Assembly (NCBI GenBank): GCA_036012755.1
Contig: DASCPX010000107.1
Span: 1-64,000, forward strand
Length of the DNA stretch: 64,000 nt
Source of the DNA: Myxococcota bacterium
GTDB taxonomy: Bacteria > Myxococcota_A > UBA796 > CAJQPC01
Direction of reading: 5' to 3'
The first letter of the stretch is position 1. Each line of letters starts with the position of its first letter. Below are positions 14,212 to 62,817 of the stretch, piece by piece. The notes below the pieces were generated by a model. It saw only the letters and a program-made list of their open reading frames with translations, was not told the DNA's origin and ran no database searches. Position numbers and translations under genes: made by a program.

Positions 14212-14514
14212 GTGACCGCCAAGCACGTCAAGTGGGTCCTGTTGGCCCTGTTGTTCGCCTTCGTCATGCTGGAAGTGGCGGCGTTCTCGCTGCAGAACAG
14301 CCAGCTGGTCGAGCTGTCCTGGAACATGGGCTTTGTCGAGTTCTACGCCTCCAGGCCCTGGCCGGTGTCGACACTGGTGTTGCTGAGCGGAGTCGTCGGT
14401 GTCCTGCTCGGACGCATCTGGGGCTGGTTCGCCGGTGCCCGAAAGGAGCGCGTCGCGCGCGCCGCCGAGCGGGATCGGGCCTTGGGTGCCAGCGCCGACG
14501 ACGACTGGGTCTGA
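14212..14514 (+). CDS. LapA-family (DUF1049) small membrane protein
   Basis: Two TM helices flanking F-x-LQN-x3-V; basic C-terminal tail; located downstream of rpsA. Confidence 0.65.
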   Translation: MTAKHVKWVLLALLFAFVMLEVAAFSLQNSQLVELSWNMGFVEFYASRPWPVSTLVLLSGVVGVLLGRIWGWFAGARKERVARAAERDRALGASADDDWV

Positions 14515-15254
14515 TGCTCCTGGCGTGGATGGTGGCCTGCGGCACGCCGCAGCCGGCCGCGCCGTCTCCCCAGACCTTCCAGTCCACGCCGGTGGGCGAG
14601 GCGCGGGAGAACCTGGTCGTGCAGCCGTCGAGTGACCGCCGCCCCGATGGGCGAGAGCCCCTGACCATCGGCGAGATGGAACACCTGGCGGTAGAAGGGC
14701 TGGATGCGCTCACCGCCGACCAACGCGTGCTGGCGATGGCCTTCTTCAACGGCACCACGGGGCCTTGCCCTACCTGCATGGACGAGGGCACACCGCTGGG
14801 AGCCTGCTTCGAGCAGGCCCCCCCGGGCTGCGACAACGTCCCTGTGGTCGCCCGGCGGGTGGTGCGGCTCGCTGGAGAGGGCCTCGACGTTGACGCGATC
14901 TCCTTGCAGGTCGAGTACGCAGACGCCTGGTACGACCTCGACGCCACGGACCTCCCGCGCACCGGCCCGGAGGGTGCCGCGGTCGAGCTCGTTGTGGCCT
15001 TCGACGCGACCTCCCAGCTCTCCAACGAGGCGGAGGCCCGCTGGACGGGGATCGCCGAGGCCTGCCCGGGACACGTGGCGATCTTCCGGCTCGACGTGCG
15101 CGAACACGCAGAGGTCGCCGAGTCCTACGGTGTCCGGTCTACGCCCACGGCCTTCGTGAACGGCTACCGCGTCCGTGGGAGCCAGCAGGCCGAGGCCTAC
15201 CTGCGCCTCGTCCGCGCCGAGCTCGGAGATCGCGGGCTGTCGTGCCAGGGCTGA
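14514..15254 (+). CDS. Lipoprotein with Cys-rich domain and DsbA/thioredoxin-like domain lacking CxxC
   Basis: TGATG overlap; MLLAWMVAC; PCPTC...C...C; GPEGAAVELVV; GVRSTPTAFVNG cis-Pro loop. Confidence 0.65.
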   Translation: MLLAWMVACGTPQPAAPSPQTFQSTPVGEARENLVVQPSSDRRPDGREPLTIGEMEHLAVEGLDALTADQRVLAMAFFNGTTGPCPTCMDEGTPLGACFEQAPPGCDNVPVVARRVVRLAGEGLDVDAISLQVEYADAWYDLDATDLPRTGPEGAAVELVVAFDATSQLSNEAEARWTGIAEACPGHVAIFRLDVREHAEVAESYGVRSTPTAFVNGYRVRGSQQAEAYLRLVRAELGDRGLSCQG

Positions 15255-16393
15255 GCCCGGGCCGACGCGCCGCGGCACAGGCGCTGTTGGCGGCGGAGAG
15301 TGGCAAGCACGCCGAGATCGTCGGCGTCGCGGGCCGTGACCTGGGGCTCGCCCGTCACCTCGTCGCTGGCGTCTTGCGTACCCGCGGGCAGCTCGACGCC
15401 GCGATCTCGAAGCTCACGAAGGGTCGGCTCGACCTGGAGGTGCAGACCGCGCTCCGCATCGGGCTCTTCGAGCTGCATCGCTCGAGAGTGCCGCCGCACG
15501 CCGCGGTGGATCAAGCCGTCCAGCTGGTCCGTGTCCTGCGCAAGGCCCGGGCCGCCGGACTGGTGAACGCGGTGCTTCGAAAGGCCCCGCCGCTTCCAGC
15601 CGTGCCCAACCACCCCGACTGGCTGGTGAAGCGCTGGACCGCGCGCTACGGGGACGTCTCGGACTGGCTCGCGCGACTCGACACCGAAGCCCCCCTGGCC
15701 CTGGCGCACAAGCCCGGGGTCGCCATGGGTGGCCTCCGCGACACGGGCGTGCCGGACACGGGCTGGCTCGATCACAGCGGCCCTATCGAGGAGATCGAGG
15801 GCTACGCAGAGGGCGGATGGTGGGTCATGGACCCTGCCGCGGCGATGGTCGCGGACCTCGTGGAGGCCCGAACTGGGCTGCGCGTCCTCGACGCCTGCGC
15901 CGCGCCAGGTGGCAAGGCGATGCGGCTCGCCTCTCAGGGTGCCACGGTGCTCGCGACCGACCGGAGCGCGGCGCGGCTGGAGCGCCTGCGCGAGAACCTC
16001 GACCGCACGAGGCTCGAGGCTGAGGTGCGGGTGGTCGACTGGACCCGGGGCGCCGAGCTCGGAGAGTTCGACGCGGTCCTCGTCGACGCGCCCTGTACCT
16101 CGCTGGGCACCACCCGCCGCCACCCCGAGATCCGGTGGTCGCGGCTGCCCACCGACCCCCTCGCGATGGCGGTCCTCCAGGACCGGATCCTCGACGGAGT
16201 GTGTGGCCACGTCCGGGTCGGCGGGCGCCTCGTCTACGCCGTGTGCAGCCCGGAGCCGGAGGAGGGGAGCGAGCGCATCGCCGCCTTCGTCGCCCGGCAG
16301 CCCGGTTACGTGCTCGAGACCGAGCGCTGCACGGCGCCCCCCGTCGGCGACGAAGACGCCTTCTATGCGGCGGTCCTCACCAAGAAGAGCTGA
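15242..16393 (+). CDS. rsmB: 16S rRNA m5C methyltransferase RsmB/Sun
   Basis: NusB-like N-terminus (VNAVLR), LDACAAPGGK, DAPCT, YAVCS. Confidence 0.9.
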   Translation: MPGLSPGRRAAAQALLAAESGKHAEIVGVAGRDLGLARHLVAGVLRTRGQLDAAISKLTKGRLDLEVQTALRIGLFELHRSRVPPHAAVDQAVQLVRVLRKARAAGLVNAVLRKAPPLPAVPNHPDWLVKRWTARYGDVSDWLARLDTEAPLALAHKPGVAMGGLRDTGVPDTGWLDHSGPIEEIEGYAEGGWWVMDPAAAMVADLVEARTGLRVLDACAAPGGKAMRLASQGATVLATDRSAARLERLRENLDRTRLEAEVRVVDWTRGAELGEFDAVLVDAPCTSLGTTRRHPEIRWSRLPTDPLAMAVLQDRILDGVCGHVRVGGRLVYAVCSPEPEEGSERIAAFVARQPGYVLETERCTAPPVGDEDAFYAAVLTKKS

Positions 16394-16394
16394 A

Positions 16395-18950
16395 GTGGCC
16401 AAGGCCGACACCCCCATGTTCCGGCAGTACCTGGAGCTGAAGGCGCAGGCGCCCGATGCCCTGATGTTCTTCCGCATGGGTGACTTCTACGAGCTGTTCT
16501 TCGACGACGCGCGCATAGCGGCAGAGGTCTGCGAGCTCACGCTCACCTCCCGGAACAAGGACGACCCGGAGCCGATCCCGATGGCGGGGGTGCCTCATCA
16601 CGCCGCCCCCGGGTACCTCCAGACGCTGGTCGACCGGGGCCACAAGGTAGCCATCGCCGACCAGGTCGAGGACCCCAAGCTCGCTCGCGGTCTCGTTCGA
16701 CGCGAGATCGTGCGCATCGTGTCGCCGGGCATCGCGCTGAACCCAGAGGACCTGCCCGCCAGGGAGCCCTGCTGGATCGTCGGCGTGGTCCGCGACGGAG
16801 AGCGCTGGGGTCTGGCGAGCCTCGACGTCTCCACCGGAGATCTGCGCGCTACCGAGCCGCTGAGCGAGGTGGCGCTCCACGACGAGCTCGGGCGCATCCA
16901 GCCCAAGGAAGTGGTGCTGCCAGAGGGGCTGGAGTTGGAGCTGACCGGCCCTCGCATCGAGCGTGTCAGTGGCTGGGAGATCGACGAGTCAGCAGCGCGC
17001 AAGCGGCTCCACGATCTGCTCGGCGTCCAGGATCTCGCTGGCTTCGGTGCGGAGGGCATGGGCCCGGCGCTGTCGGCGGCCGCCGTGGTGGTCGACCACG
17101 CGGAGGCAGCGCTGAAGTCCTCGCTGCCCCAGATCACGCGAATCCGGCCCTATGCCTCGACCGGCTTCATGGTCCTCGATGCCCCCACGCGGCGGAACCT
17201 GGAGCTCACGCGACCCCTCGTCGGCACCGGACGCAAGGGCACGCTGCTGGGCTTGCTCGACCGGACCGCCACCGCCATGGGGGGCCGCCTGTTGCGCGAG
17301 CACATCGCCTACCCGCTGTTGGACATTGACGACATCAAGCGGCGGCTCGACGCCGTCGGGGCGCTCGTCGAGGACGGTCCTGGCCGACGGCGCCTGCGAG
17401 AGCTGCTCAAGGGCGTCGCGGACATGGAGCGCCTGGGCAGCAAGCTCGCCCAGCAGACAGCGAACGGCCGCGACCTCGTGGCCCTCGGGCTGAGCATCGA
17501 GAAGCTCCCAGAGCTCTTCGGCGTGGTGGCGGAGTACCGGACCCTGCGCCACCTGCTGCCGGGAGACTTCGCAGAGGAGGTCGGCGAGCGCATCTGCAAG
17601 ACCCTGGTCGACGAGCCGCCCGCGACCATCACGGAGGGCGGGCTCCTGCGCGGAGGCGTCGATCCGGAGCTCGACGAGCTCATTCGGCTGTCCCGCGAGG
17701 GCAAGGGCATCATCGCCGCCCTGCAGGAAGCCGAGCGCGAGGCGACGGGCATCGGCTCGCTGAAGGTCCGCTACAACAAGGTCTTCGGCTACTTCATCGA
17801 GATCACCCGGGCGAACCTGCACAGGGCCCCCGAGCACTACATCCGCAAGCAGACGCTCACCAACGCGGAGCGCTTCATCACCCCGGAGCTCAAGGAGCTC
17901 GAGGAGAAGGTGCTGGGGGCAGACGAGCGCCGCCGCGCTCTCGAGCACCAGCGCTTCGTCGAGCTGCGCGAGGAGCTCGCCCGCGAGGTGCCGCGGCTCC
18001 AAGCCCTGGCAGGAGTCATCGCTGCCCTCGACGTCCACGCTTCCCTGGCCAAGGTCGCCTCGGACAATCGCTATGTGCGCCCCGAGTTCGACGCTGGCCT
18101 GCGCATCGAGATCGAGGCCGGGCGGCACCCGGTCGTCGAGCAGATGGACCTCGGCGAGCGCTTCGTGCCCAACGACCTCGTGTTGGACCCGAAGGGCCGA
18201 CAGCTCGTGATCGTGACGGGTCCGAACATGTCCGGGAAGTCGACGGTGATGCGCCAGACGGCGCTCATCGTGCTGATGGCCCAGCTCGGCTCCTTCGTGC
18301 CCGCAGAGCGCGCGCTCATCGGGCTCTGCGACCGCGTGTTCACCAGGGTCGGGGCCTCTGACGAGCTCGCCACCGGGCGCTCCACCTTCATGGTCGAGAT
18401 GTCGGAGACCGCGAACATCCTCCACCACGCCACCGAGCGCAGTCTCGTGCTGTTGGACGAGATCGGGCGCGGCACGAGCACCTACGACGGGCTCGCCATC
18501 GCCTGGGCGGTCGCGGAGGCTCTGCACGACCGGATTCGCGCCAGGACGCTCTTCGCCACCCACTACCACGAGCTCGTCCAGCTGGCGGAGTCCCGGGCCA
18601 ACGTCGCCAACGTGAGCGTCGCCATCTCCCTGTGGGGCGAACGCATCCTGTTCCTCAGGCGGCTCAAGGAGGGGGGCGCCTCCAAGAGCTACGGCATCCA
18701 GTGCGCGCGCCTCGCGGGCATGCCGCAGGAGGTCGTCGAGAGGGCAAGGTCGCTCCTGAAGGAGCTCGAGAAGCACGCCGCGCTCTCGCCCACTCCGCAG
18801 CTGTCGCTCTTCGGCGCGCGACCACCCGAGCCCGAGGCGGAGGCCGGGACAGACGAACTCAGGGCTGCGCTGGAGACCCTCGAGCCTGATACCCTGAGCC
18901 CTCGCGAGGCGCTGGAGGCGCTCTACCGCTTGAAGGAGCTGGTCAGGTGA
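16395..18950 (+). CDS. mutS: DNA mismatch repair protein MutS
   Basis: TPMFRQY, FRMGDFYELF, TGPNMSGKST, STFMVEM, DEIGRGTST, FATHYHEL. Confidence 0.98.
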   Translation: MAKADTPMFRQYLELKAQAPDALMFFRMGDFYELFFDDARIAAEVCELTLTSRNKDDPEPIPMAGVPHHAAPGYLQTLVDRGHKVAIADQVEDPKLARGLVRREIVRIVSPGIALNPEDLPAREPCWIVGVVRDGERWGLASLDVSTGDLRATEPLSEVALHDELGRIQPKEVVLPEGLELELTGPRIERVSGWEIDESAARKRLHDLLGVQDLAGFGAEGMGPALSAAAVVVDHAEAALKSSLPQITRIRPYASTGFMVLDAPTRRNLELTRPLVGTGRKGTLLGLLDRTATAMGGRLLREHIAYPLLDIDDIKRRLDAVGALVEDGPGRRRLRELLKGVADMERLGSKLAQQTANGRDLVALGLSIEKLPELFGVVAEYRTLRHLLPGDFAEEVGERICKTLVDEPPATITEGGLLRGGVDPELDELIRLSREGKGIIAALQEAEREATGIGSLKVRYNKVFGYFIEITRANLHRAPEHYIRKQTLTNAERFITPELKELEEKVLGADERRRALEHQRFVELREELAREVPRLQALAGVIAALDVHASLAKVASDNRYVRPEFDAGLRIEIEAGRHPVVEQMDLGERFVPNDLVLDPKGRQLVIVTGPNMSGKSTVMRQTALIVLMAQLGSFVPAERALIGLCDRVFTRVGASDELATGRSTFMVEMSETANILHHATERSLVLLDEIGRGTSTYDGLAIAWAVAEALHDRIRARTLFATHYHELVQLAESRANVANVSVAISLWGERILFLRRLKEGGASKSYGIQCARLAGMPQEVVERARSLLKELEKHAALSPTPQLSLFGARPPEPEAEAGTDELRAALETLEPDTLSPREALEALYRLKELVR

Positions 18951-20116
18951 GCCTCTTTGCACTGCTCAGCGCCGTACACGCGGGGGAGTTGGAGCAGGTG
19001 CACGTCTTCATCGGCGAGGGGCACGCCCGAGTGCTGCTCCTGACCGACACGCCGGTGCTGGGCGCGACCGCCCGCAGTACGCCGGCGAAGGGAGCTTCTC
19101 CGGCTCGAGGCACGGTCCTGCTCCCGGGCACCGGGCTCGACGCCTCGCTGGCCGAGGCCTACGTGCGCGAGGACGAGCACGTCTACATCCCGGTCGATGA
19201 CGGAGGCGTGAGCAGGGTCGTGCTCGCCGACCTGTCCGGCACGGTCCAGGTCGGGGTCGAGATGGACCAGAGCCGGGAGCTGAGCGTCACGACGGTCGGC
19301 GAGGTCGGGCTGCTGCTCGACCTGCGCATCCAGGGTGTCTCCCCCGACACCTCGTTGCCGGACGCGCAGCTGCTCGGGGCCTGGATGGAGGGCGTGAGCC
19401 TGGCGCGGGCGGGGGAGGGCGTCTCGAAGTCCCGGCGCGTGGTGGTGGTCGATCCGGGCCACGGTGGTCACGACCCGGGCGCGACCGGTCTCACCGGGAC
19501 CCACGAGGCGGACATAGCGCTCCAGCTCTCGCGTCGGGTTGCTCGCCAGCTGGAGGAGCGGCTCGACGTCGACGTGGTGCTCACGCGGGACGACGACATC
19601 TTCATCCCCCTGGGGGACCGAGCGGCGATGGCCAACGCCCTGGACGCGGATCTCTTCCTGAGCATCCACGCCAACGCGGCGCCCGGGCCCACGGCCTGGG
19701 GCATCACCACCTTCTACATGGACACCGCCAGCGACGCCGGAGCGGCCCGGGTGGCGGCGCGGGAGAACGCCCTGGTCGTCGAGTCGGACCAGTCGATGGA
19801 CCGCCTCGTGGCAGAGCTCAGCGTCACGGGCACATCCCGCCTGTCCCGCGATCTGGCCGGGATGGTGCAGTCGAGCGTCGTCTCGGAGCTCGAGGGCGTC
19901 TACGGTGACGAGCAGATCCGGGATCTCGGCGTCCAGACCGCGCTCTTCTACGTGTTGGTGTCCACGAGGATGCCCGCGATCCTGTACGAGGCCAGCTTCC
20001 TCACCCACCCTGAGGACGAGATGCGGCTCCGACAGCCGCTCTTCCAGGAGCTGACCGCCGACGGCATCGTCGACGCCGTCGAGGAGTACTTCGCGACCCA
20101 GGACGGCGCGGAGTAG
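18947..20116 (+). CDS. N-acetylmuramoyl-L-alanine amidase (Amidase_3)
   Basis: VVDPGHGGHDPGA, LTRDDD, FLSIHANA, PAILYEASF. Confidence 0.93.
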   Translation: MSLFALLSAVHAGELEQVHVFIGEGHARVLLLTDTPVLGATARSTPAKGASPARGTVLLPGTGLDASLAEAYVREDEHVYIPVDDGGVSRVVLADLSGTVQVGVEMDQSRELSVTTVGEVGLLLDLRIQGVSPDTSLPDAQLLGAWMEGVSLARAGEGVSKSRRVVVVDPGHGGHDPGATGLTGTHEADIALQLSRRVARQLEERLDVDVVLTRDDDIFIPLGDRAAMANALDADLFLSIHANAAPGPTAWGITTFYMDTASDAGAARVAARENALVVESDQSMDRLVAELSVTGTSRLSRDLAGMVQSSVVSELEGVYGDEQIRDLGVQTALFYVLVSTRMPAILYEASFLTHPEDEMRLRQPLFQELTADGIVDAVEEYFATQDGAE

Positions 20117-20119
20117 CCG

Positions 20120-21010
<891 letters not shown>

Positions 21011-22034: not shown

Positions 22035-23554
22035 GCAGGGCGACATGGGCGCTCGCCTGGGTGCTTCTGCTCGCGGCCACGGTCGTGAGCTACCGCTTCG
22101 TCTTCGACCTCGGCTTCACCGACACGGACGCCTGGGCGGACTACCGCGCCGCCGGCCAGAGCTGGGCCCACCAGCTGACGATGCCGCTCACCGATGGTGT
22201 GGGCGGCGCCAACGCCAACTTCTTCCGGCCGACGGCCAACCTCCACTTCAAGCTCCTTCGCACCCTCTTCGGTGACTGGGCTCTTGGCTGGCAGGCCTGG
22301 GATCTGGGACTCCACCTCGCCTGCGTCGTGCTGCTCGGGCTGGTGGTGCGGGCGGCCGGAGGCGGCCCTCGCACTGCCTTGTTGGCGGGCGGGCTCGCGG
22401 CGCTCCACCCCCTGGGCGTGGAGGTGGTCCCCGCGGTCGCTCGGAACATCGACCTGCTGCTGTCGCTGTTGGTGCTCGGCTCCGCCCTCGCGCTGCTCCG
22501 CGGGCGCTGGGTGGTGGCAGCACTCCTGGGCCTGCTCGCCCTCGGGTGCAAGGAGACGGCCGTCGCCCTGATGCCCCTTGCGCTGCTCTTCGCCTGGCGG
22601 CGGGGGGGGCGGGACGGGGCACTTCGGCTTGGCGTGCCCTGGCTGATCGGGGGTGTGGCCTTCCTCGCGCTGCGGTCATTCGTGCTGTCCGGACTCGGTG
22701 GCTACGATCCTCAGCCCATCGATCCCGTGGGCCTGGAGCGGGTCCTGCGAACGGCGGTCCTCGAGCACGCGGCGCCCGGCTGGGCCGCGCCACTGGCGGG
22801 CTGGAGCTGGCCGGCGCAGCTGGCGCTGGGAGTCCTCGCCAGCATCTTTGTGCTGTACGGAATCCACCGCGTGCGCCGGATGGGAACAGGGCTCACCGGC
22901 GCGGCGCTCTTCCTTGCACCGCTGTTGCTCTACGGGCTCGTCGGGCTCTACAACCGGCGGCTGTTGTACCTCACGACCCTCGGGTGGTCCGTGCTGCTGG
23001 CCACCTGGATCGTCCGTGACCGCCACATGCGCTTGCCGGCCCTGCTCGGTGTCGCCTTTCTCCTGCCGCACACCCCGCTCTGGCACCAGGACGAGGACTG
23101 GGCGCGCAACGACGCCGTCACCCGCTCGATGGAGGCGAACCGGGAGGAGCTGGCCGCCCTGCCAGCTGGCACGGTCGTGTGGGTGCTCGATCGCTGCCTG
23201 CGCGTCCACACGGATCCCGTGCGCCAGAAGTGGTGGGGTGACACGAGCCAGAACAACTGCGTGGGCTTCTACAGCCTGCAGGCCTGGGTCGACGAGTTCC
23301 ACGACCTGCAGTTGATGCGGCTGTCGTTGGTCCAGCCGACATCTCCGATGCTCGCTGCCGAGGTGGAGGTCGACGACGAGGGCTTCACCGTCACCCGAGA
23401 CGCGGGCAAGCGGAGCGTCTACAAGGCCGCGCGAGAAGCCGGGTGGGAGATCGACGAGGGCGGGGATAGCTGGCACTTCAGCCTGCCGGAACACGACGGT
23501 GAGTTCGTCATCGTGCTCGGCGGAGCCAAGGCCCAGCTGCTCCCCATCCCTTGA
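22031..23554 (+). CDS. Polytopic membrane protein, probable GT-C (TMTC/ArnT-like) glycosyltransferase
   Basis: About 10 TM segments; DTD in first loop, [18 protein letters not shown] motifs; soluble C-terminal domain. Confidence 0.55.
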
Positions 23555-25206
23555 AGCGCACCCTCGCCATCGTCGTTGCAACGCTCGCGCTCGGCGGGAT
23601 CGGGGTCGCTACGCAGCTGGAGGAGGGCCCCTCCTACGAGCCCTGGATCGACCCGCTCCCGGAGTACGCGGTGGGAGTGGGGTTCTGGGCCTTTCGGGAC
23701 ACGGAGGGTGGCTACGCGGTGCCCTGGTGGCCCGACCTCTGGCTGGGTTGGCAGGGACCGCAGGGTGACGGCCCGCTGCTCATCGACAGGCGCCATGCGA
23801 CCAAGCAGCTCGAGACCCACGACCTGCCGCTCGGCGCCTACGGCTACGACGACATGCACGGTCTCTACCGGGCATTCGAGCCCGCACGAGCAGCGGGTGT
23901 GCGGCTTCAGCCGGTCTGGGATCCCTGGACTCCTGGCGCCCTCGGCGGCGCCTCGGCGGTCTTCATCAACCTCGTCAGCGGAGACAACCCGGGCTTTCGG
24001 CACAGCGAGGTGCTCGCGCTCGAGTCCTTCGTCCGCCATGGCGGAGGGCTGGTCATCATCGTCGACCATACGAACTGCTACTTCCACGCCGAGATGCTCC
24101 AAGAGCTGAGCGAGGCGCTGGGCTTCGAGATCGGGCCCTACACCGCGGCCGACAGGGCGAAGGGAAACCGCCTGTCACCCCGATCGGTGGCCTGGATCCG
24201 CGTTCGACCGACCGCGGTCGACCACCCGGTGACAGAGGGTGTCCGCATGCTCGGCTGGATGAACGGCGGCGTCGTCGAGCCGACCGAGGGCTCCAAGCTG
24301 CAGGGCCTGATGCAGAACTCGGCCGAGGGCGGGTGGGCCGACCGCATGTTGCCCTACAAGAAAGCGGAGTCTGCCGGGTTCACGGGGAACTTGAGCTTCG
24401 ACGACGACGAGCTCGCCGGGCCGCACTCTGTCGTCCTCGCGGGCCGCCACGGACAGGGGAGGGTGGTTGTGCTCGCCGACCAGAACGCCTGGGGGGCGAC
24501 CCTCGTCGGCTACGAGGACAACGCCAGGCTCTTCGCCAACGCAATCGGCTGGGCTGTGGGCCAGGACGTCGACATCGACATGCGAGGGCCGGACAGCGTC
24601 ACCACGATCGGGGGCAATCGCAGCCTCTGCACCTCCGCGGCCGACCACGCCTTCCGCACCTTCCAGGTTCAGTCCCAGCGAATCGGCGAGCACCTCGCCG
24701 TACCCGAGTTCTGCACCGCCGAGGCCGAGGTCGACAGCGAAGGCCTCGTCCTGCTGCCGGAGGCCCGCCGTGAGGACCTCGAGGGCCTGCTGTCTCGCGA
24801 GCGCGTCCTCGCCGTCGTCGATCCCAGGTTCGCGGGCAGCCGCCGGCTGCTCGAAGCCCTCGACCTCTCCTGGGGTGAGGCGGGTGACGAGGTCATGGGC
24901 CTGTCCTGGAGGATCGAGCGGCCGACCTTCGACACCCGCCTGTTTTTGGACGTGTCCGAGCTGGAGCCCCTCTCGGTCGCGCCGATCGCGGTCGAGGGCG
25001 ACTACGAGGTGCTCGCAGAGGACACCTCCGGGCGTCCGATCGTGATCCGGAAGGGCAACGTCACGCTGCTCTTGGACGCGAGCCTGCTCCACAACGCCCA
25101 GCTGGGCGGAGAGCGTGAGAAGCCCTGGCTGACGGACGACCCGGGCGTCGCCGCCGCCCACCGGCTGGCCTTCGAGCTCCTGGCCGGCGTCTATCCAGCG
25201 CCCTGA
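23551..25206 (+). CDS. Exported protein with DUF4350/GIFT (class I GATase-like fold) domain
   Basis: Signal/anchor MKRTLAIVV...; E-x2-ALESFVRHGGGLVII-x-DH, HPVTEGV, GQGRVVVLAD, DNARLFANAIGW. Confidence 0.55.
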   Translation: MKRTLAIVVATLALGGIGVATQLEEGPSYEPWIDPLPEYAVGVGFWAFRDTEGGYAVPWWPDLWLGWQGPQGDGPLLIDRRHATKQLETHDLPLGAYGYDDMHGLYRAFEPARAAGVRLQPVWDPWTPGALGGASAVFINLVSGDNPGFRHSEVLALESFVRHGGGLVIIVDHTNCYFHAEMLQELSEALGFEIGPYTAADRAKGNRLSPRSVAWIRVRPTAVDHPVTEGVRMLGWMNGGVVEPTEGSKLQGLMQNSAEGGWADRMLPYKKAESAGFTGNLSFDDDELAGPHSVVLAGRHGQGRVVVLADQNAWGATLVGYEDNARLFANAIGWAVGQDVDIDMRGPDSVTTIGGNRSLCTSAADHAFRTFQVQSQRIGEHLAVPEFCTAEAEVDSEGLVLLPEARREDLEGLLSRERVLAVVDPRFAGSRRLLEALDLSWGEAGDEVMGLSWRIERPTFDTRLFLDVSELEPLSVAPIAVEGDYEVLAEDTSGRPIVIRKGNVTLLLDASLLHNAQLGGEREKPWLTDDPGVAAAHRLAFELLAGVYPAP

Positions 25207-25272: not shown

Positions 25273-26304
25273 GTGTTCGAGCTCTTGATCGCTACCGCGC
25301 TGTCAGCCGACCCCAAGATCATCAACGGCGCGGACGCCGGCCTCGATGACTACCCGATGACGGGTGGGATGCTCATGGACGCCGAAGCGGACATGGGCAG
25401 CTGGGGGTCCTACGACTTCCGCATGTTGGTCTGCAGCTCCACGCTCATCGCGCCGGACGCCGTGCTGCTCGCGGCCCACTGCGTCGACCCGGACTCCTTC
25501 ACCTACGGCCAGGGCGACCTCTCCGACGTGGACATCCGCTGGACCCGCGAGGTCGACCTCACCGACTTCGACGGCTCCCGACGCAACCCGGAGTGGCCAG
25601 AGGACGCCGTCGGCGCCTGGGACTGGGTCGCCCACCCGGACTTCGACCTCTTCGGCATGGAGGTCGGGATCGCCGACAACGCCGATGTGGCCTTGCTCTT
25701 CCTGGATGCGCCGATCACAGACGTCGAGCACGCCTACCTGCCCTCGGCGGACGAAGCCGGACAGCTCGCCGAGGGTGCCGACGTCGACGTCGTCGGCTGG
25801 GGGCAGCAGGTCGCTACCGATGGCTACTCGGAGCCCCCGGCGGGCACCTACGCCATCAAGCAGGTCGGCACGAGCTGGATCGCCGAGCTGGGCGACAACG
25901 AGATGAAGATCGGCGAGCTGGAGGACGACGTGCGCAAGTGCCACGGGGACTCGGGTGGCCCGAGCTTCATGGAGGTCACGGCGGACACAGAGGTGTCGAC
26001 CCGCCTCGTCGGCGTCACCTCCCACGCCTACGACCGCAGCGACTGCGAGGAGACCGGGGGCGTGGACACGCGCGTCGACGCCTACCTCGACTGGATCGAC
26101 GGGGAGCTCAGGGCACGCTGCGAGGACGGCACGCGCTCCTGGTGCGAGGAGCCCGGCATCGTCGCTGCTCCGGTCCCGGTCGTCGAGGACCCCGTCGCCC
26201 AGGGCGAGGAGGTCCGCCGCTTCGGCGCCTGCTCGACCGGAGGCCTCGCTCCCACCGCCCTCTACGCACTGCTCGGGCTCATGGCGCTGCGCCGCCGGGG
26301 CTAG
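25273..26304 (+). CDS. Trypsin-like (S1) serine protease with MYXO-CTERM-like tail
   Basis: IING N-terminus, CSSTLI, LAAHC, DVALL, CHGDSGGP; tail GACSTGG-hydrophobic-RRRG. Confidence 0.9.
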   Translation: MFELLIATALSADPKIINGADAGLDDYPMTGGMLMDAEADMGSWGSYDFRMLVCSSTLIAPDAVLLAAHCVDPDSFTYGQGDLSDVDIRWTREVDLTDFDGSRRNPEWPEDAVGAWDWVAHPDFDLFGMEVGIADNADVALLFLDAPITDVEHAYLPSADEAGQLAEGADVDVVGWGQQVATDGYSEPPAGTYAIKQVGTSWIAELGDNEMKIGELEDDVRKCHGDSGGPSFMEVTADTEVSTRLVGVTSHAYDRSDCEETGGVDTRVDAYLDWIDGELRARCEDGTRSWCEEPGIVAAPVPVVEDPVAQGEEVRRFGACSTGGLAPTALYALLGLMALRRRG

Positions 26305-35438: not shown

Positions 35439-35939
35439 CTACTCGCCTCCGCCGTCGTCTCCGGTCTCTGTCGGGGTCCAGCCCGTAGCGACGCCGATGT
35501 TGCTGGGCTCGGCCTCCGAGTCCGTGATGCGCACGGCGAAGTCCATCTCCGTGTCGTAGGGGATGGAGCCGCCGACCTGCAGGTAGAGGCCGAGGTTCTC
35601 TGCGGTCTCGTTGCAGGCGGCGCTGTCTTGCCGAGGGGTCCAGGTCTTGTCTCCGGCGGCTGTGCCGCTGGTGTCGACCGCGCCGTCGGGGGTCTCGTCC
35701 CACCAGATCTCCATGGTCACGACGTCGAGGTTGCCGTCGGCGTCCTCTGTGTCGGCCCAGATCAGGATCGTGGGGTAGGGCGTGCCCTCGAAGTCCTGGA
35801 CTCCGCCGTTCTCGAGCGCGACCTCGTTGATCACGGGGTCGTTGCCGAAGCACTCCAGGGTCGAGTCGTCGCCGCCCAGGGGCGGGACGTTGCTGTCGCC
35901 GGCCGGCTTGTCGCAGGAAAGGAAAAGGAGCAGTGACAT
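35439..35939 (-). CDS. Acidic lipoprotein, hypothetical
   Basis: GGAGG RBS, MSLLLFLSC, beta-rich with DADGNL and ITDSE..PSN. Confidence 0.6.
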   Translation of the reverse strand: MSLLLFLSCDKPAGDSNVPPLGGDDSTLECFGNDPVINEVALENGGVQDFEGTPYPTILIWADTEDADGNLDVVTMEIWWDETPDGAVDTSGTAAGDKTWTPRQDSAACNETAENLGLYLQVGGSIPYDTEMDFAVRITDSEAEPSNIGVATGWTPTETGDDGGGE

Positions 35940-52776: not shown

Positions 52777-53352
52777 TTAGGATCTCTGCGGCGGGCCTGA
52801 TCTGCTGGAGAGCCCGAGGGAGGAGATGAAGATCTCCTCCTCGGCATCGGCCGAGGCCTTGAAGTCGACCCTGACGTGGTCGCGGCCTTCCATGTTCGGG
52901 GCGGGCGACTCGGGGATCCCCAGGTCCTCCAGCACGTCCCTGAAGCTGGGATCGTCGGGGTAGACCCAGACCATGCCGAGCTCGTCGAGCACGAGCTGCT
53001 CCTGCATCGCGCCTCGCAGCCAGAGCTGGTGGCGCGCGTCCCGGTACAGCAAGGTGGCGCAGCGCTGGAGCGCCGAGCGCAGCGCGTGCTCCGGGACGTC
53101 GAGGGCGAGCAGGCGGTGGGGCTCTTCGAGCTGTCTGTTGGCCTGCCGGTCGACGAGCCGCACGTAGAGCACGGACACGGGCTTGGACAGGGCGGCGAGA
53201 AGAGCCGCGTGCGTCTGGGCGAGGCGGTCCGGCGGCACGCTGATGGCCAGGCGGGTGGCGCCGCTGGGGTCCACCTCGCCGCGGTAGGCGAGCGGCGGCT
53301 CGAAGCCATCGAGCTCGCCTGTCGCGGTGACCGAGGTGGCCTTCGGCGTCAC
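52777..53352 (-). CDS. Hypothetical protein
   Basis: GTGA overlap with upstream stop, GGAG RBS, globular composition. Confidence 0.65.
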   Translation of the reverse strand: MTPKATSVTATGELDGFEPPLAYRGEVDPSGATRLAISVPPDRLAQTHAALLAALSKPVSVLYVRLVDRQANRQLEEPHRLLALDVPEHALRSALQRCATLLYRDARHQLWLRGAMQEQLVLDELGMVWVYPDDPSFRDVLEDLGIPESPAPNMEGRDHVRVDFKASADAEEEIFISSLGLSSRSGPPQRS

Positions 53353-53900
53353 AGCTCCTCCAGCTCGCCGAGCCCCCAGCGGGCGTGCCCCGACCAGCGG
53401 TCGTCGGGGCTGGCGAGGACCGAAGTGTAGGCAGCCGTCGCCTGGGTGATCAGGGGCTCGGCGGCCTCCTCCAACAACACGGTCGCGTCGGCCCCGGGCA
53501 CCGGATCCCGGGTCTCGAGGACCGCCGTGGCCGCGAGTCGCAGGGCATCCGCCGTACGGCAGGCTGCGATGTCGCCGAGGTCGTGCTGGGAGGCAGCGGT
53601 CCCGAACAGCTCCAGCGCCCGCTCCGACTCCCCGACGAGGTCCATCGCGCGCTTCTTCGAGGTGGCCGGGTCCGTCGCGGCGGGCCAGCGGTCCATTCCG
53701 AGCACGATCTCCTCTCCGGCGACCAGGGACTTCTCGGCCTCTGTGCTCGCGAGCTCGAAGGGCAGGGCGGCGCCGTAGGGGATCGGGTTGCCAGCGACGG
53801 TCGGCATGAGGATGGGGACCTGTGGCACGTCCCGCTCGACGGCGACCGAGCCGACCGGAGGCTGCTTCGGCCCGCAGGCTATGAGGAGGAGCCAGGACAC
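53349..53900 (-). CDS. Helical lipoprotein, hypothetical
   Basis: MSWLLLIAC; Ala-rich helices. Confidence 0.6.
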   Translation of the reverse strand: MSWLLLIACGPKQPPVGSVAVERDVPQVPILMPTVAGNPIPYGAALPFELASTEAEKSLVAGEEIVLGMDRWPAATDPATSKKRAMDLVGESERALELFGTAASQHDLGDIAACRTADALRLAATAVLETRDPVPGADATVLLEEAAEPLITQATAAYTSVLASPDDRWSGHARWGLGELEEL

Positions 53901-53919
53901 GCCGCCCAGCTAACACCGA

Positions 53920-56413: not shown

Positions 56414-56423
56414 GCAGGGATCG

Positions 56424-57104
56424 TCAGGCGATCGGCGTCGAGACCAGGTTCGCCACGTAGAAGAAGTGCAACGTCGCGCCGGCCAGCACGAAGAGGTGCC
56501 AGACCTCGTGGTGGCCGAAGCGCTCCGGCCAGGGGTCGGGCCACTCGCGCCAGAAGATCAGGGCGCCGATGGTGTAGGCGAGGCCGCCGGAGAGCAGCCA
56601 GAAGATCTCGATGCCCGTCAGCTGCGGGAAGAACAGCAGGACAGGGAACAAGCTGAACCAGCCGAAGGCGAGGTAGAGCCCGGTCGACAGCCAGTGGGGT
56701 GCGTCCAGCCAGACGACCTTGAGCAGGACGCCGGCGACCACGAAGGCGCCGACGATGCACAGCATGACGACTCGCCACGCGCCGTCGAGGAGGATCACCA
56801 GACCGGGCACATAGGTGCCGGCGATCAACAGGTAGATCGTCATGTGGTCGATGCGGCGGAGGAGGCGATTGCCGCGCTCTCCGAAGTCGAAGAAGTGGTA
56901 GGCCGCGCTCGCGGCGAAGAGCGCCACGAGCGTGCCGCCGTAGATGCTCGCCGAGGTCACCCTGGCCGCCCCTGGCTCGCAGAAGACGAGCAACAGCACG
57001 AGGCCAACGATGGCGGCGACGAAGCCGGCGAAGTGGGAGAGCCAGGACCAGAAGTCCTTGAAGATGCCGAAGCGCACCCGGATGCCCTGGCGGAAGAAGC
57101 TCAT
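56424..57104 (-). CDS. Hemolysin III / PAQR (TrhA) family membrane protein
   Basis: SAAYH, RRIDH..IYLLIAGTY, GGLAYTIGA, HEVWHLFV, H. Confidence 0.93.
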   Translation of the reverse strand: MSFFRQGIRVRFGIFKDFWSWLSHFAGFVAAIVGLVLLLVFCEPGAARVTSASIYGGTLVALFAASAAYHFFDFGERGNRLLRRIDHMTIYLLIAGTYVPGLVILLDGAWRVVMLCIVGAFVVAGVLLKVVWLDAPHWLSTGLYLAFGWFSLFPVLLFFPQLTGIEIFWLLSGGLAYTIGALIFWREWPDPWPERFGHHEVWHLFVLAGATLHFFYVANLVSTPIA

Positions 57105-59836
57105 TCGTCGCGGCGGCGCCTCATCAGGAGCATGCCGAGCAGTGTAAGCACCGAAGCCGCAGCGGCGCCACCGCCGCTGCAACCGAAGCAGGCAGCGGAG
57201 CCCTGGCAGTCCGCGTCGATGTCGTCGCCAGCGCCGTCACAGTCGTTGTCCTTTCCGTCGTCGCACTGCTCGATGGCGTCCCGGTAGACCCAGGGATCCT
57301 CGTCGTCGCAGTCGCCCTGCGCGGGTGCCTGCCCGTCGCCGTCGTTGTCGTCCCACCACCCTGGGATGCCGCTGTCGGTGGGGGAGGTGCCCGTGTCGGT
57401 GTCGTCTGTGTCGCCGGTGTCCTCTGGGGCGATGCCGTCGACCCCATCGCAGTTCTGGTCGATGCCGTCGTCCAGCACCTCGTCGGCGTTCGGGTAGATC
57501 GTCCCGTCCGTGTCGTCGCAGTCGGTCTCTTCCGGCGGGTCTCCACCACTCTCGTGGCGGAAGCCGTCACCGTCGGCGTCGTAGTCGTCGGCGCCGTCGC
57601 AGTCGCTGTCCACCCCGTCGTACCAGGTGTCGGTCGCGCCCGGGTAGACGCTCGCGTCGTCATTGTCGCAGTCGCCGTCGCTGGGCTTGTAGCCGTCGCC
57701 GTCGTCGTCCTCGTCAGCGGCCTCTGGCCCGCCGAAGCTGCCCATGTCCGAGCGCGAGCCGTCGGTGTCGGTGATGTCGGGGTCCCCAGCGTCCCGGCAA
57801 GGCGAGGTGGAGCTCAGGTACAGGATGTCGTTGTCGGCGTTGTCGTCAACGCTCCAGCCCGTGTAGTCAGGGTCCTTCGAGATGTTGCCGTCCAAGCCAG
57901 TGAGATCACTGAGACCTTGACCCCAGTCGGTGCCGTTGTCGTGGCTGTCGTTGTAGGTGATGACGAAGTCGCTGATCGAGTAGGCACGGAAGCCGTCGCC
58001 GTCGTTGAAGGCGGCGATGTCGTTGACGAGGGTCACACCCTCGCCGTACTCCACGCTGAAGCCGCGCTCGCCGTTGCCGACCGCGTCGGAGTTCTGCACG
58101 ACGAAGGCCCCGGTCGCGTCCGAGACCGTCAGGCCAGTGCCGCCGTTGCCTATGAAGACGCTGTTGGTGACGATGTGTGAGCCGCTCGCCGAGTAGTAGG
58201 CGCCGCCGTCCAGGTTGCCGCGGAAGCTCGTGTTCTCCATGTAGGAGCCGTCGATCGAGACCGCCTTGAGGCCCTCTTCGGCGTTCCCGCTGTAGCTGTC
58301 CGATGTGATCTTGAAGCTGTTGGCGCCGATGACGTAGACGCCCTCTGGGCTGTTGTCGTCGAAGTCGTTCTGGGACGAGATCCATGACTTGGGCGCGTCG
58401 GCATAGACGGCGCCGCCGCTCGTCGTCGCGGTGTTGCGCTGGAAGCTGTTCTTCGACAGCGTGCCCGTGGCCCCCGAGGCGTCGTTGGCGTGGTGGAAGA
58501 CGGCGCCCCCGACGTCGGAGGTGTTCGTCAGGAAGGTGCTGCGCTTGAGGGTCATCGCGGCCCGGTAGACGCGGATCGCCCCGCCCTGGGAGCCGCCGGA
58601 GTTGGCCGTGAAGGTCGAGTCGTAGACCTCCAGCTTGCCCTCGTCGGCGAAGATGGCGCCGCCGGCGATGTCAGCCGTGTTGCTCGTGAAGTCCCCGTCC
58701 TGGATGTAGATGGGCGCAGAGGACCAGATCGCCGCTCCCTCCTCCGTGGCGGTGTTGTCCTCGAAGGTGCAGGTGTCGACGGCGAGGTCCTCGCCGCTGC
58801 CGGTGTCGATCACGTAGACAGCGCCGGAGTCGGAGCTGTGGTTCATGATCGTGCAGTCCCGCAGGGTCAGCTTCGTGCCGCCGCCGAAGTAGATGGCCGG
58901 CCCGCGGATGGTGCTCGCCGCGGCGGTGTTGCCGTCCATCTCGCCGCGGACCTCCATCTTCGTGTCCCAGCTGTAGATCCCGCCCCCGTTCCCGCCTGCG
59001 GCGTTGTCGTTGATCTCCGCGGTGGCCCCGCGGAACCAGCTGCCAGAGCTCGAGTTGGACCCCTCGATGTAGGCGCCTGCGCCGGAGAGCCCGGAGCTGT
59101 TGTTGGTCACGACACAGTTCTGGCAAGCCAGGTCGGAGTCACGGACGTCGACACCGCCACCGTTGTCCGCGGCAACGTTCGAGTCGACCGTGACCCGCGT
59201 CATCGTGACCGTGGAGCCGTCGCGGATCCGGAAGCCCCCGCCGTGCCACTCGGCGGTGTTGTCTTCGACGGTGACGTCGGTGAGGTCCGCCGTCGAGTCG
59301 GTGATGTAGAAGCCCCCGCCCTGGTACGCGGTGTTGCCGCTGACCGTGCAGTTGCTGGCGGTGAGGGTGCTGCCGTCGACGAAGAAGCCGGCCCCGTACT
59401 GGCTGTTGGTGAGCTCCACGTTCTTGACGTTGCAGCTGCTGATCGTCAGCGTGGCGCCGTTGGTGACGAGGTAGCCCCCGCCGTTGCTCTTGCCCGTGAC
59501 GTTGTTGACGCGGATCGACGAGGCCGTCACGGTCGACCCGCGGACCTCCAGCCCCTGGTCGCTGCCGGTCAGCTCGAAGCCCGAGATCGTCACGGTCTCG
59601 CCCTCGTCTACCGACACCGCGTGGGTCTCGCCCGTGGCGTCGATGATCGTGGTCGACGGGCCATCGCCTGTCAGGGTGAGGTTCTTTCCGCTGGTGTCGA
59701 CGGCCTCTTCATAGGTGCCGGCGGCCACGGTGATCGTGTCTCCGCTGCTGGCGGCGTCGATCGCGGCCTGGATGGTGGAGTGGTCACCGGGCACGGAGAG
59801 CGTCGCGCCCCACGCCGGAGCGAGCAGGATCAGCAC
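57101..59836 (-). CDS. Large surface protein: right-handed beta-helix (Pmp-like repeats), MopE-like repeats, MYXO-CTERM-like tail
   Basis: GGAGG RBS, short signal, VPGD..TIQAAI, AGTY.E, FxxN/GGA[IV] repeats, SP..DAGDP, three DCDD-type repeats, CFGC-hydrophobic-RRRR. Confidence 0.85.
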   Translation of the reverse strand: MLILLAPAWGATLSVPGDHSTIQAAIDAASSGDTITVAAGTYEEAVDTSGKNLTLTGDGPSTTIIDATGETHAVSVDEGETVTISGFELTGSDQGLEVRGSTVTASSIRVNNVTGKSNGGGYLVTNGATLTISSCNVKNVELTNSQYGAGFFVDGSTLTASNCTVSGNTAYQGGGFYITDSTADLTDVTVEDNTAEWHGGGFRIRDGSTVTMTRVTVDSNVAADNGGGVDVRDSDLACQNCVVTNNSSGLSGAGAYIEGSNSSSGSWFRGATAEINDNAAGGNGGGIYSWDTKMEVRGEMDGNTAAASTIRGPAIYFGGGTKLTLRDCTIMNHSSDSGAVYVIDTGSGEDLAVDTCTFEDNTATEEGAAIWSSAPIYIQDGDFTSNTADIAGGAIFADEGKLEVYDSTFTANSGGSQGGAIRVYRAAMTLKRSTFLTNTSDVGGAVFHHANDASGATGTLSKNSFQRNTATTSGGAVYADAPKSWISSQNDFDDNSPEGVYVIGANSFKITSDSYSGNAEEGLKAVSIDGSYMENTSFRGNLDGGAYYSASGSHIVTNSVFIGNGGTGLTVSDATGAFVVQNSDAVGNGERGFSVEYGEGVTLVNDIAAFNDGDGFRAYSISDFVITYNDSHDNGTDWGQGLSDLTGLDGNISKDPDYTGWSVDDNADNDILYLSSTSPCRDAGDPDITDTDGSRSDMGSFGGPEAADEDDDGDGYKPSDGDCDNDDASVYPGATDTWYDGVDSDCDGADDYDADGDGFRHESGGDPPEETDCDDTDGTIYPNADEVLDDGIDQNCDGVDGIAPEDTGDTDDTDTGTSPTDSGIPGWWDDNDGDGQAPAQGDCDDEDPWVYRDAIEQCDDGKDNDCDGAGDDIDADCQGSAACFGCSGGGAAAASVLTLLGMLLMRRRRDE
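57232..57709 (-). repeat. Three MopE-like / putative metal-binding repeats (DxDGDG...DCD...P...DGxDxxCDG) in the surface protein; limits approximate
   Basis: DDDGDGY..DCDNDD..DGVDSDCDG; DADGDGF..DCDDTD..DGIDQNCDG; DNDGDGQ..DCDDED..DGKDNDCDG. Confidence 0.85.
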
Positions 59837-59855
59837 AGATGACCTCCGCGGGGCG

Positions 59856-61604: not shown

Positions 61605-61639
61605 GCGGTCTCGCGGGCTCCGGGACGGGCCCAGGGCCG

Positions 61640-61648
61640 AGGATAGCA
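61640..61648 (-). promoter_or_regulatory. Putative extended -10 (TGCTATCCT) for the kinase at 61604
   Basis: TGnTAnnnT in the divergent intergenic region. Confidence 0.45.
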
Positions 61649-61809
61649 CCGCCTTTTCTTCGCCAGGGGACGATGGGCGGAGTCCAGGGGGTTCGCCCGC
61701 GTGTCGATTCGGTTAGACTCCCCGCCGATTCGGACGGGATCCTCCAGTGGAACCCGAGCCGGGCGCGGGCGTCCGACAAGACGCGCGTGCTCCGCACAGG
61801 GAGAATGGA

Positions 61810-62817
61810 ATGCTTCTGGGCTTCTTGTGGCTGACGAGCTGCTTCGTCCTCGACATGATCGGCGGTGACGACGGGGCCTTGCTCCAGGGCGCGGACGCCA
61901 AGCTGAGCGCTGGCGATGTCGCTGGCGCGATCGTCGACTACGAGACCGTGCTCGCCGGCAATCCGGAGAGCGTCGACGCCGCGATCGGCGTGGCCTATGG
62001 CGCCTACGTCAGTGGCGACCTCGGGCGCGCCGAGACCGTGCTCGCCTCTGTCGAGGGTGTCGCGGGCGAGCGACTCAGCGAGATCAAGCTCCGGCGTGCG
62101 CTGGTCGCGATGGCCTCTGGGGACACGGACGCGCTGCGCGAGCACGCGGCCGCCTCGGGTCTGCCGGAGGGCAAGGTCCTCGTCGCAGAGGTGGCCCTGG
62201 CCGACGGTGAGCGCGAAGAGGCCATCGCGCTCCTGCAGGACGCAGCTGGTGCCGGCGGCGAGGTCGCTTCTGCCGCCAACGGCTACCTGGAGCTGCTCGG
62301 GGATGACGATCCTGCCGTGCAGGGTCTGGCCGAGAACTACGCGCTGTGGGCGCTCGGTGCCCGCAGCGTGGCGGTGAAGTCCGTCGAGGAGGTCGTCAAG
62401 AGCGTCCCCGACGATCGCGATCGAAAGGCGGAGGAGCTCTTGTTGTGGGCTGGCCGGGCGGCGGGTGAGGGGGAGACCCTCGTCGCTTCCAGCCTGCTCG
62501 AGGCGATCAGCTTCCCACCGCCGGGGCAGGCGTGGCGTGTTCCGGCGACGCGGGCGATCATCGACTGCGCCGACGGCGAGCACGACACCTGCCTCGCCAC
62601 CTTCGAAGACCTCGACGGAAAGGCCCCTGCGGACGGCCTCCTGCATGCCCGCGCGACCGCTGCCATGCTGGTGGACGACGCCGAGGTCGTCACAGAGCTC
62701 CTTCCGGAGCACCCCAGCGCGGCCTCGGCTCTAGCTGCCGCGATGGCTGGCAATGACTCCATGGCTCGGAGCCTGGCCCCGTCTGGCCTGCTCGCCGAGC
62801 ACCTCAACGCGAGGTAA
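61810..62817 (+). CDS. TPR-like helical repeat lipoprotein
   Basis: MLLGFLWLTSC; GD..GAI..YE.VL..NP..VDA..G.A TPR pattern. Confidence 0.7.
   Translation: MLLGFLWLTSCFVLDMIGGDDGALLQGADAKLSAGDVAGAIVDYETVLAGNPESVDAAIGVAYGAYVSGDLGRAETVLASVEGVAGERLSEIKLRRALVAMASGDTDALREHAAASGLPEGKVLVAEVALADGEREEAIALLQDAAGAGGEVASAANGYLELLGDDDPAVQGLAENYALWALGARSVAVKSVEEVVKSVPDDRDRKAEELLLWAGRAAGEGETLVASSLLEAISFPPPGQAWRVPATRAIIDCADGEHDTCLATFEDLDGKAPADGLLHARATAAMLVDDAEVVTELLPEHPSAASALAAAMAGNDSMARSLAPSGLLAEHLNAR

Follow-up and report, generated by a model that had tools for sequence, protein, structure and literature searches.

Ultra-short, uncharged N-terminal leaders in one order of Myxococcota, with a candidate link to the SecY pore ring

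Are leaders of about ten uncharged residues genuine export signals, or do they merely reflect misplaced gene starts? The question is raised by a window of 64,000 nucleotides, bases 1-64000 of contig C107, from a marine uncultured Myxococcota genome of 6.73 Mb (G000; 250 contigs, ~69% G+C). A preliminary description of the window had claimed that eight putative lipoproteins and four other putative secreted proteins begin with such leaders. All 12 of these short N-termini are present where it had placed them, six of them on the minus strand (33635, 35939, 49889, 53900, 51457 and 59836), and none of the 12 leaders contains Lys or Arg; the Glu in the leader at 25273 had gone unmentioned. Signals of roughly 15-30 residues with a basic n-region are what textbook rules and prediction tools presuppose.

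Our analysis indicates that these N-termini are probably real starts that act as minimal Sec signals, using the ordinary SecYEG channel and then either Lgt, LspA and Lnt or the LepB signal peptidase.

A genome-wide class of short leaders

We defined a short lipobox class as genes whose called start gives Met, 3-11 uncharged residues and [AGS]C. In G000, 697 of the 5840 called genes (11.9%) belong to it, with the Cys at residue 6-14 and most often at residue 8, and only 181 genes match the canonical pattern with Lys or Arg. Short signals make up most predicted lipoprotein starts of this genome and ~12% of all its genes. When internal start-like codons were used as a control, 296 of 82587 (0.36%) matched the short pattern. 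At the DNA level, the pattern ATG-(NTN)5-GCN-TGY occurs 42 times in G000 and its reverse 0 times; with ATG swapped for AAG, CGC or GAG, 1-2 matches are found. A loose short pattern of the signal peptidase I (SPI) type was matched by 509 of 5840 starts versus 2.75% of internal controls, and any uncharged hydrophobic start by 1037 of 5840 (~18%) versus 2.6%.

It counts against these figures that both the gene caller and the signal classes are our own and that the short class bars charged residues by construction. Because charge is excluded in this way, the informative quantities are the counts and a start-independent test, not the lack of Lys or Arg. In that test, 675 of the 1088 lipobox N-termini of G000 cannot gain Lys or Arg from any in-frame ATG, GTG or TTG. 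The genome-wide distribution of first-Cys position and n-region charge, which the preliminary description had proposed as a check, confirmed the short uncharged class as a feature of the whole genome, and short-leader genes occur on all large contigs of G000.

A start artefact, in which the true starts lie upstream, possibly at CTG or other non-canonical codons, and restore basic n-regions, appears very improbable. For nine of the 12 window genes, no in-frame ATG, GTG or TTG within 30 codons upstream adds Lys or Arg; the preliminary description had itself named upstream starts that restore normal n-regions as one of two outcomes that would refute it. In the other three, extensions that add Lys or Arg exist and are all implausible. 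At 35939, a GTG 10 codons upstream would add RR, and both the GGAGG at -11 and the coding score favour the short start; at 49889, Lys or Arg is obtainable only from a GTG 30 codons upstream; and at 61810, only from GTG 61747, 21 codons upstream, through polar and acidic sequence. In-frame stops lie 3 codons upstream of 47840 and 53900 and 9 codons upstream of 33635. The start at 53900 is not extendable because its stop, a TAG, sits so close, and the gene at 47840 is bounded at the same distance. The stop/start overlaps that had been claimed in support of the short starts (TGATG at 14514, GTGA at 18947 and 49889, and ATGA at 51457) proved correct, as did the ribosome-binding sites at 35939 and 59836, with GGAGG at -11 in both.

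The same holds beyond the window. An in-frame stop occurs within 3 codons upstream in 106 of the 697 genes, whose mean Cys position (8.5) is the same as in the remainder, and for this stop-bounded subset the artefact is refuted. No alternative start exists within 25 codons upstream for 482 of the 697. The ten residues upstream of short starts have the composition found upstream of other genes (R 0.163 vs 0.152), a Shine-Dalgarno core precedes 332 of 697 short-leader genes vs 2061 of 5058 others, and genes of G000 end normally at each of the three stop codons.

What speaks for misplaced starts is, first, that an upstream standard start would add Lys or Arg in three of the 12 window genes and in 130 of the 697. 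Second, our dicodon gene caller, trained on G000 and blind to signal peptides, can truncate n-regions: for the canonical gene at 63296 it chose the internal start 63341, and its starts were therefore not accepted at face value. It agreed on the start of 11 of the 12 short-leader genes and for the twelfth chose TTG 33641, two codons upstream. Third, two orthologues of the window's amidase, L089:1-600 and L103 (G007:C46), have a hydrophobic leader with no in-frame ATG, GTG or TTG before it; the only candidate start in L089 is a CTG that overlaps the mutS stop (CTGA). These two leaders hint that non-canonical initiation may occur in relatives.

We also observed that in-frame stops, TAG in most cases, peak sharply at exactly 3 codons upstream of starts, in 74 of 697 short-leader genes and 359 of 5143 others; the window has two examples, at 47828-47830 and 53910-53912. 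The peak probably reflects a T ahead of the ribosome-binding site AGGAGG at -11 and no separate signal.

An assembly or binning artefact of this metagenome-assembled genome (MAG) can hardly account for the class. G000 is fragmented into its 250 contigs and is 95.95% complete with 1.62% contamination; against this, the trait occurs on all large contigs and in many related genomes, and the short starts and upstream stops of the window recur in contigs of further sequencing runs (X6, and X9, which belongs to another study), with identical sequence around 47840, 49889 and 53900. Run X9 has C>A at window position 51451, which changes Ala3 to Ser in the leader of the caspase-domain protein, a conservative natural variant.

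Leaders, homologues and export machinery

Short leaders also occur on families whose members have to leave the cytoplasm. In the window the leaders are borne by Amidase_3, trypsin-like, Peptidase_M1, caspase-domain, beta-helix/NosD and TPR proteins, the first three of which count as exported families. Elsewhere in G000, four of the 10 Plug/TonB-receptor genes begin with leaders of 11 residues that lack Lys and Arg and finish in A-x-A (e.g. ..ALA, then QE), one of the four containing Glu; three of the 10 Plug genes have basic leaders. The best Omp85 (BamA-like) gene starts MIHLLLAFWIALAQS, and one Omp85-like gene and one TolC-like (OEP) gene have leaders of 10 residues, closed off by stops that lie 3 and 5 codons upstream, respectively. 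Both the outer-membrane barrels and the periplasmic amidase have to pass the inner membrane, and therefore either these leaders act as export signals or something else replaces them. Within G000, the same protein families bear canonical as well as short signals, and the coexistence of canonical signals in the window, which had been claimed for 8831, 23551, 62820 and 63296, was borne out.

The composition of the short leaders is distinctive. In the 697 lipoboxes, position -3 is Leu in 422 and position -2 is Leu in 413; position -1 is Ala, Gly or Ser in all 697, by construction. Leu is an unusual residue at -2. Compared with canonical cores, the short ones are more hydrophobic (Kyte-Doolittle 2.98 vs 2.23; fraction of Leu, Ile and Phe 0.71 vs 0.42; p = 6e-33). 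Residue 2 is mostly Leu, Ile or Phe, and by the usual rules the initiator Met is kept when such a residue follows it. After the Cys come acidic, Pro/Thr-rich linkers, as in the canonical lipoproteins of G000. There is no Arg in any of the 12 window leaders and hence no twin-arginine motif of the Tat type.

Two ideas suggested by composition were rejected. An acidic mature N-terminus might have replaced the charge of the n-region; the net charge of the first 30 residues is -5.23 in short vs -4.49 in canonical lipoproteins (p = 0.001), a small difference, and since the early mature region is acidic in both classes, downstream charge compensation is at most minor. That the canonical signals mark recently acquired genes is unsupported by G+C content at third codon positions (0.903 vs 0.897, p = 0.11).

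Homologues in relatives carry ordinary signals at the same place. The best matches to the MutS encoded beside the amidase are only 38-60% identical and spread over many phyla, which made them uninformative on taxonomy; for the amidase itself, the nearest named records are a 'Proteobacteria bacterium' MAG (74%) and a 'Myxococcota bacterium' MAG (55%). The amidases of relatives align with it from the same first mature residues. Their leader is short and has neither Lys nor Arg in G002, has 15-17 residues without n-region charge in G003, G006 and G023, contains a single Arg or Lys in G009 and G010, and is of the normal RR type in G028, G019 and L090. Homologues of the short lipoproteins of G000 have MR..-type signals with median lengths of 15-19 residues in G004, G030, G059, G022 and G050, and short, uncharged leaders in G005 and G007. 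These pairs are best hits in sampled DNA and not proven orthologues, several queries share one subject, and pairs without a lipobox near the aligned site were listed and left unclassified. In another relative (L102, G008:C53:15948-20090), mutS and the downstream amidase form one open frame of 1283 aa with no stop between them, which is either a fusion or an assembly error.

The leaders might instead be uncleaved N-terminal anchors, or the proteins might be cytoplasmic, with a lipobox-like Cys that is not lipidated. Met plus five to seven hydrophobic residues is indeed too short to span the bilayer as a helix. We nevertheless judge this reading improbable, as the same leaders occur on TonB receptors, Omp85, OEP and the periplasmic amidase, homologues have canonical signals of the signal peptidase II (SPII) or SPI type ending at the aligned Cys or A-x-A site, and the pre-Cys positions are strongly conserved ahead of linkers like those of canonical lipoproteins.

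The short lipoprotein leaders resemble the Sec/SPII signal of the E. coli Lpp type in their hydrophobic stretch leading to a lipobox with an invariant Cys, in the flexible linker that follows, in the presence of genes for Lgt, LspA and Lnt, and in the normal form that homologues carry at the same position. They differ in lacking a Lys/Arg n-region, in the position of the Cys (residue 6-14 vs medians of 15-24 in the canonical-type genomes sampled), in the predominance of Leu at -2 and in a core far richer in Leu, Ile and Phe. Signals of the Lpp type follow a rule in the style of PROSITE PS51257, and their usual length puts the Cys at about residue 15-35. The remaining short leaders resemble Sec/SPI signals, with a hydrophobic core and a putative small-x-small cleavage site, on outer-membrane barrels and periplasmic enzymes of a genome that has LepB-type peptidases; unlike those signals they total ~10-15 residues and retain the h and c parts without the basic n-region.

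From these observations we infer export, cleavage and lipidation through a minimal signal: Met, a Leu/Ile/Phe-rich core of ~4-9 residues, and a lipobox (L-L-[AGS]-C) or an A-x-A-type site, with no charged n-region. Proteins with this signal would pass the ordinary SecYEG channel and then be processed by Lgt, LspA and Lnt or by LepB. The uncharged N-terminus may sit inside the membrane or the lateral gate, which would bring the Cys or A-x-A site to the outer face and so within reach of LspA, Lgt and LepB; such burial would account for the pairing of shortness with missing charge. A more hydrophobic core could compensate for its short length. The signals probably arose within one order of Myxococcota from normal ones that lost their n-region and whose h-region became shorter.

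The machinery for this route is encoded in G000. We found five Lgt, two LspA and one Lnt over cut-off, three Peptidase_S26 (LepB-type) matches, one SecA, one Ffh M-domain, two deformylases and one SecY. With Lgt, LspA, Lnt, LepB, SecA, Ffh and SecY all present, no separate export route is indicated. Loss of the signal recognition particle, SecA, deformylase, LepB or Lnt was rejected as a cause, all of them being present, and so were extra copies of Lgt or LspA: there are 2-7 Lgt matches per genome across the class, and 1-2 LspA with or without the trait. Outside the window, G000 has a tandem lspA-lspA-lgt-lgt block (G000:C59:100000-102591), with three further Lgt paralogues elsewhere.

Phylogenetic distribution and the SecY pore ring

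The short-signal trait is graded and patchy within one order of Myxococcota. We counted ATG-(NTN)5-GCN-TGY in 301 genomes of the phylum, where the reversed-pattern control gave 0-2 everywhere (Table 1). In addition, 99-200 kb were sampled from each of 16 relatives, genes were called with a self-trained codon model, and the share of called genes that have a lipobox N-terminus unable to have a basic n-region was determined. This share is 675/5840 in G000, 30/178 in G005, 18/135 in G007, 8/77 in G008, 7/107 in G030, 9/161 in G059, 6/157 in G006 and 5/166 in G004, and falls to 1/156 in G026, 0/96 in G028 and 0/126 in G022. In three genomes from other orders of the class it is 0/64, 0/107 and 0/72, and in three from other classes 0/114, 0/112 and 1/69. 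Among the genomes searched (301 pattern counts and 16 samples), the trait was not found outside the order. It is a lineage trait, genome-wide and confined to part of one order, and not a start-annotation error, in agreement with the preliminary description. G059, with its moderate share of 9/161, consists of a single 9.4-Mb contig.

Table 1. Matches to ATG-(NTN)5-GCN-TGY in genomes of the phylum
Group	Matches per genome
G000	42
Same family, genus g4 (G005, G012)	90, 56
Same family, G007	11
Same family, six other members	1-5
Second family of the order (f7), five genomes	9-35
Family f3, genus g26 (G059, G205)	9, 14
Remainder of the order, 27 genomes	0-7
Other orders of the class, 14 genomes	0-2
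Remainder of the phylum, 243 genomes	0-4

The sample of G261 (L216-L222), from another class of the phylum, contains short but basic lipoprotein signals with a median Cys position of 15, e.g. MRGLLLIVVAAC. Short signals may be a wider tendency of the phylum that is extreme in this order.

The exact DNA pattern for MLLLLLAC was also scanned over a public collection of species and genomes. The matches listed are mostly N-terminal and lie in MAGs labelled Myxococcota, Deltaproteobacteria or 'proteobacterium', and no independent lineage was found among them. Those from Elusimicrobia, Cryosericum and Acidobacteriota were rejected as an internal membrane segment of a conserved protein and not N-termini, and one from Rhodocyclales as having a normal MMPRR.. 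leader. Several MAG records (L291, L332, L293 and others) with Myxococcota-type MLLLLLAC starts are labelled Enterobacteriaceae, Klebsiella pneumoniae or Cognaticolwellia; as the SecY of such MAGs, where found, falls in the order's clade, these labels look wrong.

A candidate for what distinguishes the order lies in SecY. We aligned SecY from 54 genomes, 21 within the order and 33 elsewhere in the phylum, and numbered it by E. coli SecY (PDB chain 5abb_A). Ile187, a residue of the pore ring, is replaced by Ala in 12 and Ser in 9 of the 21 members of the order; outside it, the residue is Ile in 31 genomes and Met in 2. The rest of the ring is conserved, with Ile or Val at I82 and I86 and Ile at I191, I278 and I408, both within the order and outside. 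Position 187 is the only alignment column that separates the order from the rest of the phylum with no more than two exceptions, and a sole discriminating column would fall on any of the six residues of the ring with a chance of roughly 6 in 449. Further changes occur in part of the order: S282 is Ala in 5/21 (Ser in 33/33 outside), F286 is Ala or Ile in 5/21 (Phe in 33/33 outside), and position 411 is Ser, Asn or Ala in 12 and Gly in 9 (outside, Gly in 28, Val in 4 and Ala in 1). Most strong-trait genomes have a second SecY change at Ser282 or Phe286.

Ten further genomes were chosen by the MLLLLLAC pattern alone. SecY was found in eight of them, and all eight have Ala or Ser at 187 and carry S282A or F286A/V/I. 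These eight SecY sequences fall within the order's clade (FastTree support 0.999), and one of the eight is identical to G012.

The ring of E. coli SecY is described as six isoleucines (PMC8082313). I187 is placed in this isoleucine ring in PMC2171872, in a passage that also lists prlA mutations at G69, I191, I278, S282 and I408. According to the relevant statements in PMC3518225, most prl mutations lie in either the plug or the pore ring, are believed to displace the channel's equilibrium between its closed and its open state, and improve translocation of signals shortened by 2-6 residues. Given this literature and the change in the ring, a permissive, easier-opening channel is a reasonable mechanism, and the order-wide substitution of Ile187 by Ala or Ser suggests that the channel may be of a permissive, prl-like kind. 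In E. coli and yeast alike, prl mutations of the ring and the plug allow shortened or defective signals to pass. We take F286 to be linked to prlA4.

The resemblance to prlA/sec61 prl alleles lies in a smaller or polar residue at a pore-ring position, and S282 is itself among the prlA positions listed in PMC2171872; prl alleles are described in PMC3518225 as passing truncated or defective signals. The order's changes are natural and fixed, unlike the prl alleles, which are laboratory mutants, and some members of the order keep normal signals despite the Ile187 change.

A causal role of SecY, which we infer from this correlation, must be stated with reserve. That an easier-opening channel is what tolerates such weak signals is conceivable, and we propose it tentatively. 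The broader scenario is rather doubtful. In it, the whole order has a naturally prl-like SecY, aided by S282 or F286 changes in several lineages, which would lower the threshold of channel opening and would have let several lineages cut the signals of most of their envelope proteome to about seven uncharged residues, filling only part of the membrane. Several points weigh against both. The Ile187 change is also found in members nearly free of the trait (G026, 1/156; G028, 0/96; G022, 0/126), and it is therefore at best permissive and not sufficient. It represents one evolutionary event at the base of the order, so that the correlation has n = 1. The second sites fit imperfectly: the trait occurs without S282 or F286 changes in G007, G008 and G014, and such changes occur with little or no trait in G004, G042 and G022. 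I187 is absent from the prlA positions named in PMC2171872. Relatives were sampled on a small scale, with 64-178 genes each, and related genomes are not independent of one another.

The patchiness bears on a further alternative, namely that a dedicated targeting factor or a separate export or lipidation route reads the leaders, and not a SecYEG channel with relaxed gating. Since the trait is patchy within the order although the Ile187 change is common to all its members, something else must differ between members with many and with few short signals. Nonetheless, such a factor or route seems unlikely, as no standard component is missing and each has a single or ordinary copy number, one genome has canonical beside short signals on the same families, and the numbers of Lgt and LspA paralogues do not follow the trait. 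The preliminary description had suggested either a non-canonical export or lipidation route or modified machinery. The former finds no support, the machinery being present and homologues having canonical signals, and the latter has one candidate, SecY Ile187.

Minimal signals handled by the ordinary Sec route thus remain our preferred reading, and we regard them as an extreme form of Sec signal peptides; the mechanistic lead, SecY Ile187, is new and testable. No published description of such ultra-short signals was found in the literature searched, and the dual cleavage sites that PMC13616975 describes for signals of Myxococcia beta-lactamases are, as presented there, a different matter. About 12% of the genes of G000 (~18% when every uncharged hydrophobic start is counted), including essential outer-membrane machinery, break both of the usual rules on charge and length. 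In this group, much of the envelope proteome is probably overlooked or given wrong starts by standard annotation. The order offers a natural experiment on how little sequence opens SecYEG and is read by Lgt, LspA and LepB. If the broader SecY scenario is correct, the length and charge of signal peptides would be set by co-evolution with the channel and would not represent a fixed physical minimum. The fixed pore-ring change can be tested directly in E. coli, and very short leaders with a matched channel could serve secretion engineering.

Features of the window

The 12 genes with short leaders and the four with canonical signals are listed in Table 2.

Table 2. Genes of the window with short or canonical leaders
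Position	Strand	Product or signal	N-terminus	Start context and database matches
14514..15254	+	Putative lipoprotein	MLLAWMVAC, Cys 9	Overlaps stop of gene 14212-14514; no in-frame ATG/GTG/TTG within 30 codons upstream; weak thioredoxin-like Pfam match below cut-off
18947..20116	+	AmiC-type N-acetylmuramoyl-L-alanine amidase	12-residue leader MSLFALLSAVHA, then GELEQ	Overlaps mutS stop; 19 open codons upstream hold no other start; PF01520 (Amidase_3), E 3.4e-44
25273..26304	+	Trypsin-like serine protease	GTG start, leader MFELLIATALSA, then DPK	GGAG at -9; alternative TTG 11 codons upstream adds no Lys/Arg; PF00089, E 3.3e-17
31815..33635	-	Peptidase_M1 lipoprotein	MWWLAC, Cys 6 (MGMWWLAC from TTG 33641)	Two alternative TTG starts, neither adding Lys/Arg; PF01433, E 6.6e-10
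35439..35939	-	Putative lipoprotein	MSLLLFLSC, Cys 9	GGAGG at -11
46985..47830	+	Putative lipoprotein	GTG start, MAGLALLVAC, Cys 10	Start overlaps 3' end of gene 45132-47006, which lies upstream; no other start within 30 codons; X6 contig identical
47840..48064	+	Small putative lipoprotein	GTG start, MLALLLTAC, Cys 9	AGGA at -11; in-frame TAG 3 codons upstream is the previous gene's stop; X6 and X9 identical
48981..49889	-	Putative lipoprotein	GTG start, MILLLSAC, Cys 8	Overlaps stop of gene 49886-51457; X9 identical
49886..51457	-	Caspase-domain (Peptidase_C14) protein	14-residue leader MIALLLALSGSAEA, then A	Overlaps stop of gene 51454-52185; no alternative start; PF00656, E 4.4e-15
53349..53900	-	Putative lipoprotein	GTG start, MSWLLLIAC, Cys 9	X6 contig identical over 53887-54500
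57101..59836	-	Beta-helix / NosD / MopE-repeat protein, 911 residues	GTG start, MLILLAPAWGA, then TLS	GGAGG at -11; no alternative start within 30 codons; PF13229, E 2.5e-36
61810..62817	+	TPR lipoprotein	MLLGFLWLTSC, Cys 11	GGAG at -10; TPR_19 matches below cut-off
8831..9433	+	Canonical lipoprotein signal	MSMRATVTPALIAILATVGLGSC	
23551..25206	+	Canonical basic signal	TTG start	
62820..63278	+	Canonical SPI-type signal	MTRSILSLFALLLLAVLPSEALA	
63296..64000	+	Canonical SPI-type signal	GTG start, MKKTALALAVFGLSSVAWA	Gene continues past window end

The short-leader lipoprotein gene 53349-53900 (-) is divergent from the gene at 53920-54936 (+), and the two are separated by only 19 bp; with so small a gap, both promoters must sit within neighbouring coding regions.

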